Part shown: piece by piece, positions 44,711 through 47,863 of the stretch
Layout: each line of letters begins with the position of its first letter
How positions within the stretch are numbered: the first letter of the stretch is position 1
Assembly: GCF_003019035.1 (NCBI RefSeq)
Contig: NZ_CP027447.1
Reading direction: 5' to 3' (one strand)
Length of the DNA: 64,000 nucleotides
From: Escherichia coli
GTDB taxonomy: Bacteria > Pseudomonadota > Gammaproteobacteria > Enterobacterales > Enterobacteriaceae
Program-made: the position numbers and the translations under genes
The notes under the pieces: generated by a model
Told to the model about the DNA's origin: nothing
Databases searched by the model: none
The model's input: the letters and a program-made list of their open reading frames with translations, nothing else

Positions 44711-47350
44711 ATGCTGGGTAAATATAAAGCCGTTCTCGCGCTGTTATTACTGATTATTCTTGTGCCGTTGACGCTGCTGATGACGCTCGGGCTGTGGGTT
44801 CCCACGCTGGCGGGCATCTGGCTACCGCTCGGGACACGTATTGCATTAGATGAAAGCCCACGCATTACGCGTAAAGGTTTAATCATTCCCGATCTCCGTT
44901 ATCTGGTGGGAGATTGTCAGCTTGCGCATATCACCAACGCCAGCCTTTCACATCCCAGCCGCTGGTTATTGAACGTCGGCACGGTAGAACTTGATTCTGC
45001 TTGTCTGGCGAAATTGCCGCAGACGGAGCAATCGCCAGCCGCTCCAAAAACCCTCGCGCAGTGGCAGGCCATGTTGCCTAACACCTGGATCAATATCGAT
45101 AAACTGATTTTTTCTCCCTGGCAGGAATGGCAGGGAAAACTCTCTCTCGCATTAACCTCCGATATCCAGCAACTGCGTTATCAGGGCGAAAAAGTTAAAT
45201 TTCAAGGCCAGCTGAAAGGGCAACAACTTATAGTCAGCGAACTGGATGTCGCCGCGTTTGAAAATCAGCCGCCGGTAAAACTGGTGGGGGAATTTACTAT
45301 GCCGCTCGTGCCGGATGGACTTCCGGTAAGTGGTCATGCTACTGCGACGTTAAACTTACCGCAGGAGCCTTCACTGGTGGATGCCGAGCTGGACTGGCAG
45401 GAAAATAGCGGGCAATTGATTGTGCTGGCACGGGATAACGGCGATCCGTTGCTCGATTTGCCGTGGCAAATTACTCGTCAACAATTGACCGTAAGCGATG
45501 GTCGCTGGAGCTGGCCGTATGCAGGTTTTCCTTTAAGTGGCCGACTGGGTGTCAAAGTCGACAACTGGCAGGCAGGGCTCGAGAACGCTCTGGTCAGCGG
45601 ACGACTGAGTGTGCTGACCCAGGGGCAAGCGGGTAAAGGCAACGCGGTGCTTAATTTTGGCCCAGGAAAATTAAGTATGGATAACAGCCAGCTGCCTTTG
45701 CAGCTGACCGGTGAAGCGAAACAGGCGGACCTCATTTTATATGCCCGTTTACCTGCGCAGCTAAGCGGAAGTCTGACTGACCCAACGCTGGCCTTTGAGC
45801 CAGGCGCGTTATTACGTTCGAAAGGAAGAGTCATCGATTCGCTGGACATCGATGAAATCCGCTGGCCTTTAGCGGGTGTAAAAGTCACCCAACGTGGTGT
45901 TGACGGACGTTTGCAGGCCATTTTGCAGGCGCATGAAAATGAACTGGGCGATTTCGTGCTGCATATGGATGGACTGGCGAATGATTTTCTCCCTGACGCT
46001 GGCCGCTGGCAGTGGCGCTACTGGGGAAAAGGCAGTTTTACACCGATGAATGCCACCTGGGATGTCGCAGGAAAGGGTGAGTGGCATGACAGCACGATTA
46101 CGCTGACCGATCTCTCCACCGGTTTCGACCAGTTACAATACGGTACGATGACGGTAGAAAAGCCGCGACTAATTCTCGACAAGCCCGTCGTCTGGGTACG
46201 TGACGCACAGCATCCCTCCTTTAGCGGCGCGCTGTCACTGGACGCCGGGCAAACGCTGTTCACTGGCGGCAGTGTGTTACCGCCATCAACCTTAAAATTT
46301 AGCGTCGATGGACGCGATCCGACGTATTTCCTCTTTAAAGGCGATTTACATGCTGGTGAGATTGGCCCGGTTCGGTTAAATGGTCGCTGGGACGGTATTC
46401 GTCTGCGCGGTAACGCCTGGTGGCCTAAACAATCACTGACCGTATTCCAGCCGCTGGTGCCACCCGACTGGAAGATGAACTTACGCGATGGCGAACTATA
46501 TGCCCAGGTCGCATTTTCTGCTGCGCCTGAACAAGGATTCCGCGCGGGAGGGCACGGTGTGTTGAAAGGCGGTAGTGCCTGGATGCCAGATAATCAGGTT
46601 AACGGTGTCGATTTTGTCCTGCCTTTCCGTTTTGCCGATGGAGCCTGGCATCTGGGGACTCGCGGCCCCGTTACGTTGCGAATTGCCGAAGTGATTAATC
46701 TGGTGACAGCGAAAAATATTACGGCTGATTTGCAAGGTCGTTATCCGTGGACTGAAGAAGAACCATTGCTGTTGACTGATGTTAGCGTTGATGTGTTAGG
46801 CGGTAACGTGCTGATGAAACAATTACGTATGCCGCAACATGACCCGGCGCTGTTGCGGCTGAATAATCTTTCCTCCAGCGAACTGGTTAGCGCCGTCAAT
46901 CCGAAACAATTCGCCATGTCCGGGGCATTTAGTGGTGCATTGCCGTTATGGCTAAACAACGAAAAATGGATAGTGAAAGATGGTTGGCTGGCAAATAGCG
47001 GGCCAATGACCTTGCGGCTGGATAAAGACACCGCAGATGCGGTGGTGAAAGACAATATGACTGCGGGTTCAGCAATTAACTGGTTGCGCTATATGGAAAT
47101 TAGCCGTTCATCGACAAAAATTAATTTAGATAATCTCGGTTTATTAACCATGCAGGCCAACATTACAGGTACCAGTCGCGTTGATGGTAAAAGCGGTACG
47201 GTAAACCTTAATTACCATCACGAAGAGAATATTTTTACGCTGTGGCGCAGTTTACGCTTTGGCGATAATCTCCAGGCATGGCTGGAGCAGAACGCGCGTC
47301 TGCCGGGAAATGACTGTCCGCAAGGAAAAGAGTGTGAGGATAAACAATGA
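44711..47350 (+). CDS. ydbH: AsmA-like large membrane-anchored periplasm-spanning protein
   Basis: 879 aa, N-terminal TM anchor then extended beta-rich region; followed by ynbE/ydbL. Confidence 0.85.
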   Translation: MLGKYKAVLALLLLIILVPLTLLMTLGLWVPTLAGIWLPLGTRIALDESPRITRKGLIIPDLRYLVGDCQLAHITNASLSHPSRWLLNVGTVELDSACLAKLPQTEQSPAAPKTLAQWQAMLPNTWINIDKLIFSPWQEWQGKLSLALTSDIQQLRYQGEKVKFQGQLKGQQLIVSELDVAAFENQPPVKLVGEFTMPLVPDGLPVSGHATATLNLPQEPSLVDAELDWQENSGQLIVLARDNGDPLLDLPWQITRQQLTVSDGRWSWPYAGFPLSGRLGVKVDNWQAGLENALVSGRLSVLTQGQAGKGNAVLNFGPGKLSMDNSQLPLQLTGEAKQADLILYARLPAQLSGSLTDPTLAFEPGALLRSKGRVIDSLDIDEIRWPLAGVKVTQRGVDGRLQAILQAHENELGDFVLHMDGLANDFLPDAGRWQWRYWGKGSFTPMNATWDVAGKGEWHDSTITLTDLSTGFDQLQYGTMTVEKPRLILDKPVVWVRDAQHPSFSGALSLDAGQTLFTGGSVLPPSTLKFSVDGRDPTYFLFKGDLHAGEIGPVRLNGRWDGIRLRGNAWWPKQSLTVFQPLVPPDWKMNLRDGELYAQVAFSAAPEQGFRAGGHGVLKGGSAWMPDNQVNGVDFVLPFRFADGAWHLGTRGPVTLRIAEVINLVTAKNITADLQGRYPWTEEEPLLLTDVSVDVLGGNVLMKQLRMPQHDPALLRLNNLSSSELVSAVNPKQFAMSGAFSGALPLWLNNEKWIVKDGWLANSGPMTLRLDKDTADAVVKDNMTAGSAINWLRYMEISRSSTKINLDNLGLLTMQANITGTSRVDGKSGTVNLNYHHEENIFTLWRSLRFGDNLQAWLEQNARLPGNDCPQGKECEDKQ

Positions 47351-47532
47351 AAATTTTACTGGCTGCGTTGACGTCATCTTTTATGCTGGTTGGCTGTACG
47401 CCTCGCATTGAAGTCGCTGCCCCTAAGGAACCGATCACTATCAATATGAACGTTAAAATTGAGCATGAGATCATCATCAAGGCAGACAAAGATGTCGAAG
47501 AGCTGCTTGAGACCCGTAGCGATCTTTTTTGA
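47347..47532 (+). CDS. ynbE: small lipoprotein YnbE
   Basis: 61 aa; lipobox MLVGC; start overlaps ydbH stop (ATGA). Confidence 0.8.
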   Translation: MKILLAALTSSFMLVGCTPRIEVAAPKEPITINMNVKIEHEIIIKADKDVEELLETRSDLF

Positions 47533-47536
47533 GGTG

Positions 47537-47863
47537 ATGATGAAAAGAACATTACTTCTTTGTGCATTTCTTGTTGGCTTGGTAAGCAGCAATGTAATGG
47601 CATTGACTCTGGATGAAGCCAGAACCCAGGGACGGGTAGGTGAAACATTTTACGGTTATCTGGTTGCGCTGAAAACGGATGCTGAAACAGAGAAATTAGT
47701 AACAGAGATTAATGCCGCGCGTAAAGCGAGCTACCAACAACTGGCAAAGCAAAATAATGTGTCGGTGGATGATATCGCGAAACTTGCCGGGCAAAAGCTC
47801 GTATCTCGCGCTAAATCAGGAGAATATGTGCAGGGCATTAACGGAAAATGGTTACAGAAATAA
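47537..47863 (+). CDS. ydbL: periplasmic DUF1318 protein YdbL
   Basis: 108 aa from MMKRTLLLCAFLVGLVSSNVMA (signal peptide); GAGGTG SD immediately upstream. Confidence 0.8.
   Translation: MMKRTLLLCAFLVGLVSSNVMALTLDEARTQGRVGETFYGYLVALKTDAETEKLVTEINAARKASYQQLAKQNNVSVDDIAKLAGQKLVSRAKSGEYVQGINGKWLQK

Follow-up and report, generated by a model that had tools for sequence, protein, structure and literature searches.

An intact Escherichia coli ydbH-ynbE-ydbL operon: comparison of related loci identifies ynbE as the obligatory and ydbL as the dispensable partner of ydbH

The AsmA-like proteins YdbH, YhdP and TamB are redundantly essential, as established genetically: triple loss of tamB, yhdP and ydbH is lethal (mBio 2021, PMC8593681). 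The operon encoding YdbH accounts for one of the three redundant pathways by which phospholipids are believed to reach the Gram-negative outer membrane, a process that has long been a gap in envelope biology and is a possible drug target. TamB, which pairs with TamA, is like YdbH an inner-membrane-anchored AsmA-like rod that depends on an outer-membrane partner, the genes for rod and partner being adjacent and joined by a stop/start overlap; the two systems are functionally redundant. However, TamB relies on an Omp85 beta-barrel whose gene lies upstream, whereas YdbH relies on a 61-aa lipoprotein encoded downstream, and TamB and YdbH showed no detectable similarity in sequence (hhalign probability 1.5%). 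[quoted passage not shown]

Also among the closest known systems are the eukaryotic bridge-like lipid transfer proteins (VPS13, ATG2, BLTP1) and the Lpt bridge (LptC-LptA-LptD/E). The latter shares with YdbH-YnbE a multi-protein, periplasm-spanning hydrophobic beta groove with edge-to-edge strand pairing, but differs in its LPS cargo, ATP-driven operation and beta-jellyroll fold; LptD was among the weak Foldseek matches of YdbH, with TM-scores of only ~0.12. Beta-strand augmentation has been shown to join YdbH and the lipoprotein YnbE into an intermembrane bridge, with YdbL acting in a chaperone-like manner (PNAS 2024, PMC11126948). The authors of that study compared YdbL with CsgC of the curli system, a small periplasmic protein that stops its partner CsgA from entering runaway beta-polymerisation too early. 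The fold of CsgC is immunoglobulin-like, whereas most of YdbL is helical and includes a ClpP-handle-like helix pair, and the two are not homologous.

We analysed a 64,000-nucleotide stretch of an E. coli chromosome (the window) in which three genes, read directly and from a listing of open reading frames, lie head to tail:

44711-47350, plus strand: ydbH, open reading frame of 879 aa
47347-47532, plus strand: ynbE, open reading frame of 61 aa
47540-47863, plus strand: ydbL, 107 aa, the frame ending at 47863

The genes, their order, the ATGA overlap between ydbH and ynbE and the ydbL Shine-Dalgarno sequence are those of the K-12 operon (b1381-b1383). The 3.6-kb operon stretch was present in 5417 of 5426 complete E. 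coli genomes (coverage at least 80% in 5409), and its DNA was 100% identical to that of strain SCU-301, where it is annotated as ydbH/ynbE/ydbL. In a Pfam profile search, each product matched its own family far over threshold. We conclude, with a probability of about 0.93, that the locus is the intact E. coli ydbH-ynbE-ydbL operon, orthologous to that of K-12 and encoding an inner-to-outer-membrane bridge with YdbL as modulator. The sequence-only reading of this DNA had named the same genes, assigned them as AsmA-like bridge protein, lipoprotein and periplasmic partner, judged the architecture intact and linked it to lipid transport, all of which agrees with the annotation and with published experiments (PMC8593681; PMC11126948; bioRxiv 10.64898/2026.03.16.712125). 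The system was already known, and the present copy, a standard E. coli locus that differs by conservative substitutions, adds nothing new to it.

YdbH matched the YdbH-like profile PF11739 over positions 1-892 of 893 (E 2.8e-291; 970 bits, cut-off 26.3) and the NCBIfam equivalog NF007971 at 1399.6 bits (cut-off 824). It was identical to K-12 YdbH at 871/879 residues (99%), with eight substitutions. In the AlphaFold2 model (mean pLDDT 85.1), an N-terminal helix (residues 2-36) is followed by ~50 consecutive beta strands (42-840) and a C-terminal part of helices and a disordered tail. YdbH is accordingly modelled as an inner-membrane-anchored AsmA-like bridge protein with the N-terminal helix as its predicted anchor.

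YnbE matched PF13617 over the full length of the profile (positions 1-34/34; E 3e-16, 59.3 bits), and its gene differed from that of K-12 at three positions. Three parts of the protein bear on its function:

47386-47397, plus strand: lipobox L-V-G-C, residues 14-17 of the translation, with Thr (T18) at +2
47434-47460, plus strand: beta-strand I30-I38, residues mapped in PMC11126948
47479-47529, plus strand: C-terminal helix and tail K45-F61, ending RSDLF, the published YdbL-binding region

The signal peptide carries the lipobox with C17, a cysteine conserved in 93/93 of the YnbE sequences listed, and the +2 residue is not of the inner-membrane retention type; YnbE has been located in the outer membrane (PMC11126948). 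The strand, ITINMNVKI, is identical to that of K-12 and alternates polar and non-polar residues, and its core motif remains conserved as far away as Pasteurellaceae (GITINMNVVV). Residues K48-T56 were mapped in the same study as I30-I38; there, proline substitutions in the strand abolished function, YdbH-YnbE photo-cross-links were obtained, and ynbE was essential and ydbL was not in a tamB yhdP background (PMC11126948). The requirement for YnbE extends to P. aeruginosa (PMC12447247).

Three signals mark the two junctions:

47336-47340, plus strand: ynbE Shine-Dalgarno GAGGA, read directly within the 3'-terminal part of ydbH, with a 6-nt spacer to the ATG
47347-47350, plus strand: ATGA stop/start overlap, with the ynbE ATG at 47347-47349 and the ydbH TGA at 47348-47350
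47531-47538, plus strand: strong ydbL Shine-Dalgarno GAGGTGAT, read directly, overlapping the ynbE stop TGA (47530-47532)

It had been claimed from the sequence that ynbE starts on the ydbH stop and that the three genes are certainly co-translated. The first claim was correct. The overlap and the Shine-Dalgarno sequence inside ydbH together imply that ynbE translation depends on ydbH translation by termination-reinitiation, and ydbH/ynbE translational coupling has indeed been measured (Huber 2019, PMC6728339; PMC10666635), on the K-12 sequence, whose spacer differs by one base from the present copy. The Shine-Dalgarno sequence proved strictly essential for ynbE reinitiation (Huber 2019, PMC6728339). 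Across 93 loci, the window included, 72 had a 4-nt overlap and 17 an overlap of a single nucleotide, and a Shine-Dalgarno-like motif preceded ynbE in 89. A simple folding test of the region from position -99 to position +30 relative to the ynbE start (-30.4 kcal/mol; z +0.84 against shuffles) did not support a special occluding RNA structure. The second claim was overstated: coupling has been measured for ydbH and ynbE, and ydbL may likewise be coupled to ynbE, as published papers only suggest. The operon should therefore be described as co-transcribed and translationally coupled.

The ydbL start also required adjustment. The first in-frame ATG, at 47537, lies 4 nt past the ynbE stop, and the K-12 annotation and PGAP both use the second, at 47540, giving a gap of 7 nt. 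Among the 76 related loci with ydbL, the +7 ATG was present in 58 and the +4 ATG in only 25, with ACG in many others; the TGAGG junction at the ynbE stop is conserved in the related loci listed. Conservation of the +7 ATG favours 47540, as does the position of the strong GAGGTGAT, so that ydbL begins 7 nt after ynbE and not within 5 nt as had been stated.

YdbL matched PF07027 (DUF1318; E 1.2e-30), and its mature form matched the solved YdbL structure 28oj_A (E 2.4e-47). The signal peptide ends near ...NVMA/LTLDE. Identity to K-12 YdbL was 99/107 residues (93%), and the functional or YnbE-binding residues R28, E35, Y40, N58, R61, L68, N72, W104 and K107 were all retained. Position 60 is Ala here and Glu in K-12; Ala is the family majority (71/76), and a neutral effect has been reported for E60A. 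The C-terminus reads ...WLQK in place of the K-12 ...WVRKF, because homology with K-12 stops within the last ydbL codons; downstream, an autotransporter gene replaces the K-12 feaR-feaB-tynA-paa block. Farther along, a G run at 51030-51035 may mark either a sequencing error or a genuine frameshift. A crystal structure of YdbL has been reported, and YdbL has been found to bind the C-terminal helix of YnbE, NMR placing the contact at YnbE E39-F61; excess YdbL is toxic, and the protein is degraded by DegP (bioRxiv 10.64898/2026.03.16.712125).

These observations fit a mechanism in which YdbH, anchored in the inner membrane by its N-terminal helix, reaches across the periplasm as a long all-beta rod bearing a hydrophobic groove. 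The small lipoprotein YnbE, which is tethered to the outer membrane, adds its I30-I38 strand to the last YdbH strand by beta-strand augmentation. YnbE probably stacks into a short oligomer that completes the bridge between the two membranes. Phospholipids are thought to move by sliding along it, in a pathway redundant with YhdP and TamB-TamA; we infer both this cargo and the bridge stoichiometry. YdbL serves as a periplasmic chaperone-like modulator that binds the YnbE C-terminal helix and tail, limits runaway amyloid-like YnbE multimerisation and aids docking on YdbH, and its dose has to be balanced. The overlap of the ydbL Shine-Dalgarno sequence with the ynbE stop plausibly helps to set the ratio.

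The sole increment of this work is comparative. We collected 92 related loci, of which 80, each from a different Enterobacteriaceae species, were kept from a search with a 16-sequence YdbH alignment; the distant contexts come from 12 single look-ups. The ydbH loci number at least 358. YnbE and YdbL had been expected to be co-conserved with YdbH. This held for ynbE, which adjoins ydbH in 91/92 loci (80/80 Enterobacteriaceae species and 11/12 distant loci), and only partly for ydbL, which is missing at the locus in 7/80 Enterobacteriaceae species and in 10 of the 11 distant loci that could be evaluated. The seven species without ydbL at the locus are Phytobacter massiliensis, Pseudescherichia vulneris, Atlantibacter hermannii, Enterobacter sp. 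ENT03 and kpr-6, and the MAGs UBA3516 and UBA7338; the Phytobacter-type YnbE tail reads ...LLEQQEIKARE. The homologue lists for YdbH and YdbL, dominated by close relatives, contained no distant YdbL. The YnbE C-terminal S-D-L-F tail occurred only where ydbL was present (70/70 v 0/15 distinct sequences), and since the tail tracks ydbL, the published YdbL-YnbE interface gains independent support. Thus, ynbE is the obligatory, tightly coupled partner of ydbH, and ydbL is dispensable in evolution as in the laboratory.

Taken together, these patterns suggest a broader reading, to which we give a little less than even odds: ydbL would be a lineage-restricted add-on, gained or lost at least five times and mirrored exactly by the S-D-L-F tail, the YdbL-bound part of YnbE. 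Lineages without ydbL would then have to control YnbE multimerisation otherwise, and these natural ydbL-less systems are now pointed out for study. Pasteurellaceae instead couple a polytopic membrane protein (HI_1241 family) to the ydbH start, a candidate inner-membrane bridge partner. Some database names make this protein a DMT transporter, an assignment that found no support: its TM-scores to DMT structures were 0.13-0.22, and its best, non-significant similarity (~0.5) was to PsrC/NrfD-like subunits.

Several features of the system could be read as making YdbL an obligatory third structural subunit, with all three proteins required. Published AlphaFold-Multimer and MultiFold2 models put YdbL with YnbE at the YdbH C-terminus, YdbH levels drop when YdbL is missing, full multicopy suppression needs YdbL, and the three genes are adjacent in 73/80 Enterobacteriaceae species. 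Yet growth persists when a tamB ydbL strain is depleted of YhdP, which means that ydbL, unlike ydbH and ynbE, is not essential there; too much YdbL is inhibitory to the system; and both the absences of ydbL from the locus (7/80 and 10/11, as above) and the at least five gains or losses on the YdbH tree tell against a fixed subunit. Largely refuted by genetics, an obligatory YdbL is very improbable. The suggestion that both small partners are required cofactors therefore survives for YnbE and fails for YdbL, whose deletion is tolerated in that strain and whose excess is toxic. More elementary still is the idea that the small open reading frames and their overlap are chance features and no true genes; short frames are generally common, and many spurious ones were listed on both strands. 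The arrangement is not a chance one, given its presence in 5417/5426 genomes, the conserved stop/start overlap and the Pfam matches of all three products: those of ynbE and ydbL fall in curated families, the same junction is kept in 91/92 related loci, and in published work the proteins have been detected and cross-linked and YdbL crystallised. Already refuted, this idea retains a negligible probability.

The cargo is a separate question. YdbH-YnbE might be an envelope tether, or might carry something other than bulk phospholipid, for example by helping outer-membrane proteins or lipoproteins to assemble, the role originally suggested for TAM. No biochemical transport assay has been published for YdbH, the modelled bridge alone is too short, and the AsmA-like GspN is reported to help lipoprotein transport. 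Against this, loss of the three paralogues leads to phospholipid build-up in the inner membrane and YhdP loss slows lipid flow, the alternating non-polar residues of the YnbE strand would extend the hydrophobic groove, and a P. aeruginosa YdbH-YhdP fusion substitutes functionally (PMC12447247). We therefore regard a tether or another cargo as decidedly unlikely, and a phospholipid bridge remains our preferred reading of the YdbH-YnbE pair.

Signals flanking the operon were fainter. Consensus scans of 44400-48400 called no plus-strand promoter upstream of ydbH and no terminator downstream of ydbL, Rfam returned no RNA family in 43000-49000, and a repeat search gave only short, chance-like matches. 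Three elements were nevertheless delineated by inspection and alignment:

47873-47889, plus strand: GC hairpin CCCGC-TTGTT-GCGGG, just 3' of ydbL
44633-44661, plus strand: candidate sigma-70-type promoter, TTCAAC (44633-44638), 17-nt spacer, CACAAT (44656-44661)
44690-44705, plus strand: 5' leader stretch AAATCAGGATATTAAC

The hairpin is at best a weak terminator (45-nt fold, -11.6 kcal/mol; z -1.4, not significant). The putative promoter, too weak to pass the threshold of the consensus scan, forms a conserved block in the ldhA-ydbH intergenic alignment of 13 Enterobacteriaceae genera. In the same alignment the columns of AAATCAGGATATTAAC are nearly invariant, and this leader stretch contains AGGA (44695-44698), 12 nt before the ydbH ATG.

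The proposal, made from the sequence alone, that ydbH, ynbE and ydbL form a three-gene unit was borne out by the open reading frames, which agreed between the ORF table and direct reading:

44711-47350, ydbH, 879 aa
47347-47350, ydbH/ynbE overlap (ATGA, the ynbE ATG lying over the ydbH TGA)
47347-47532, ynbE, 61 aa
end at 47863, ydbL frame

The window is chromosomal E. coli DNA, and its positions 44400-48000 were 100% identical to strain SCU-301 (NZ_CP051751.1), whose RefSeq annotation over the matching stretch has ldhA on the minus strand followed by ydbH, ynbE and ydbL. Each product scored far over threshold against its own family: YdbH against PF11739 (YdbH-like, E 2.8e-291) and the NCBIfam equivalog NF007971 (1399.6 bits), YnbE against PF13617 (YnbE-like lipoprotein, E 3e-16) and YdbL against PF07027 (DUF1318, E 1.2e-30). 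Compared with K-12, YdbH was identical at 871/879 residues and YdbL at 99/107, and the ynbE DNA differed at three positions. The 3.6-kb stretch spanning the genes was found in 5417 of 5426 complete E. coli genomes. Thus, the family matches, the identity to K-12 and this near-universal occurrence confirm the three-gene observation, which is not a chance arrangement. Nine complete genomes gave no match to the stretch, and 5 of 5419 matches lay on records labelled plasmid. In the ldhA-ydbH spacer, a weak promoter-like TTCAAC-17-CACAAT (44633-44661) was conserved across Enterobacteriaceae genera, as was a nearly invariant leader, AAATCAGGATATTAAC (44690-44705), 5 nt 5' of the ydbH ATG.

The locus is well studied and already known, and the window copy is an ordinary one. 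Loss of tamB, yhdP and ydbH together is lethal (Ruiz et al., PMC8593681). In strains lacking tamB and yhdP, ynbE and ydbH are both essential and ydbL is dispensable (Kumar, Davis and Ruiz 2024, PMC11126948). [quoted passage not shown] A crystal structure of YdbL is available from De'Ath et al. 2026 (bioRxiv 10.64898/2026.03.16.712125), who also used NMR to demonstrate its binding to the YnbE peptide E39-F61, mapped functional residues and reported that free YdbL is degraded by DegP; window YdbL matched this structure in the PDB with E 2.4e-47. In P. aeruginosa, YdbH (PA5307) requires the adjacent ynbE (PA5306) for function (PMC12447247). Strong termination-reinitiation coupling has been measured at ydbH/ynbE, where it depends strictly on the internal Shine-Dalgarno (Huber et al. 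2019, PMC6728339), and the pair was taken up again in a 2023 follow-up (PMC10666635). Every check that the sequence-only reading proposed, namely complex prediction, synthetic phenotypes and partner requirement, is therefore already in print, and the mechanism has been worked out experimentally, save for direct proof of lipid transfer.

The architecture had also been called intact, and the window copy is functionally intact. In YnbE the lipobox (L-V-G-C17, Thr at +2), the strand I30-I38 (ITINMNVKI) and the C-terminal helix with a tail ending RSDLF were all present; its strand and helix residues were those named in PMC11126948. YdbL kept all residues reported as important (R28, E35, Y40, N58, R61, L68, N72, W104 and K107). 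It differed from K-12 by E60A, a change reported to be neutral (De'Ath et al. 2026, bioRxiv 10.64898/2026.03.16.712125), with Ala being the family majority (71/76 distinct sequences). The AlphaFold2 model of YdbH (mean pLDDT 85.1) runs from an N-terminal helix (residues 2-36) through about 50 successive strands (42-840) to C-terminal helices and a tail that is disordered, and as a prediction agrees with the published rod model.

Three modest new points emerged, which we offer as leads: a patchy distribution of ydbL, a YnbE tail that tracks ydbL, and an alternative architecture in Pasteurellaceae. Scanning genomes with an alignment of YdbH gave 358 loci, of which the best 80 (all Enterobacteriaceae, one per species, 61-96% identity) were kept, and 12 more distant representatives (26-49% identity) were each looked up singly; the sample is thin beyond Enterobacterales and Pasteurellaceae. 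Co-conservation with ydbH, which the sequence-only reading had itself named as the point on which it could fail, held for ynbE but only in part for ydbL. ynbE directly followed ydbH in 80/80 of these best loci and adjoined it in 11/12 distant ones, whereas ydbL followed ynbE in 73/80 and was present in 1/11 evaluable distant loci (L094), absence here meaning absence from the neighbourhood and not from the whole genome. The seven Enterobacteriaceae loci lacking ydbL (L032, L042, L049, L058, L062, L064 and L082) came from two Enterobacter sp. (ENT03 and kpr-6), two MAGs, Phytobacter massiliensis, Pseudescherichia vulneris and Atlantibacter hermannii; an unrelated gene came next, with no YdbL-like sequence within about 5 kb. 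Among distant loci, azoR and/or hrpA, which in L094 are found past ydbL, directly followed ynbE in L091-L093. A neighbour-joining YdbH tree called for no fewer than five ydbL gains or losses. The ydbH/ynbE junction was a 4-nt overlap in 72/93 loci and a 1-nt overlap in 17/93 (window counted). Among the 92 related loci, L086 (metagenome SRR1614279) alone had no neighbouring ynbE: its 927-aa YdbH-like protein (3501-6284) is followed, 65 nt after its stop, by the start of an oppositely oriented fur-like gene.

The YnbE C-terminus [S/G][D/G][L/I]F occurred in 70/70 distinct sequences with an adjacent ydbL and in 0/15 without (Fisher P 6e-17, which overstates independence because YnbE sequences are phylogenetically related). 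This association is consistent with the published binding of YdbL to the YnbE tail, and also fits the genetics, with YnbE obligatory and YdbL accessory. At ydbL-less loci (the seven above plus L083, L084 and L091-L093) the tail that in E. coli reads ...LLETRSDLF was replaced or lengthened; examples are ...LLEQQEIKARE, ...LLERQNH and ...LLKEQK. Four database proteins (P0271, P0276-P0278; 155-173 aa) carried YnbE (PF13617) and YdbL (PF07027) domains together. In the window the two genes are in different frames (stop at 47530, start at 47540, 10 nt apart), so such fusions need an indel and are thus probably assembly or gene-calling artefacts.

The suggestion that ydbL follows within 5 nt of ynbE did not hold. 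The first in-frame ATG is at 47537, 4 nt past the ynbE stop, but K-12 and PGAP annotation use the next, 47540 in the window, leaving a 7-nt gap. Among 76 related loci carrying ydbL, the +7 ATG was present in 58 and the +4 ATG in only 25, with ACG in many others. The sequence GAGGTGAT (47531-47538), a Shine-Dalgarno that shares bases with the ynbE stop codon, is rightly spaced for 47540. These comparative sequence data settle the choice for 47540 as the predicted start; mature YdbL would be identical from either, since the signal peptide is removed.

In Pasteurellaceae-type loci (L087 from Bibersteinia trehalosi CP006954.1, L088, L089/L090 and L098), a 272-274-aa polytopic membrane protein of Pfam PF27206 (HI_1241 family) precedes ydbH, and ynbE follows without ydbL. 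Between its stop and the ydbH start there is a 1-nt overlap in L087-L090 and a 13-nt gap in L098. All named homologues found were from Pasteurellaceae, and a literature search returned no paper mentioning the family. The protein model was confident (pLDDT 86.5, pTM 0.88), with no significant match among solved structures. We consider this protein a candidate partner of the bridge at the inner membrane.

Homology of the window with the K-12 locus stops inside the last three ydbL codons (47850-48316 compared), so that YdbL ends ...GKWLQK in the window and ...GKWVRKF in K-12; by this alignment, the 3' end of ydbL marks the variable-region boundary. The feaR-feaB-tynA-paa block that lies 3' of ydbL in K-12 is missing from the window strain. 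In its place 3' of ydbL is an autotransporter gene (BigA/YdbA-like, 48316-54278), a single 1987-aa CDS in SCU-301. In the window it is broken into ORFs 48316-51162 and 51102-54278, which overlap, because of a six-G run (51030-51035) where SCU-301 has seven; the remainder of 38400-54000 was identical to SCU-301. This segment occurs in 13 further complete E. coli genomes, which likewise matched with one base more than the window, presumably in that G run. The six-G run may reflect sequencing error, a genuine pseudogene or slipped-strand variation.
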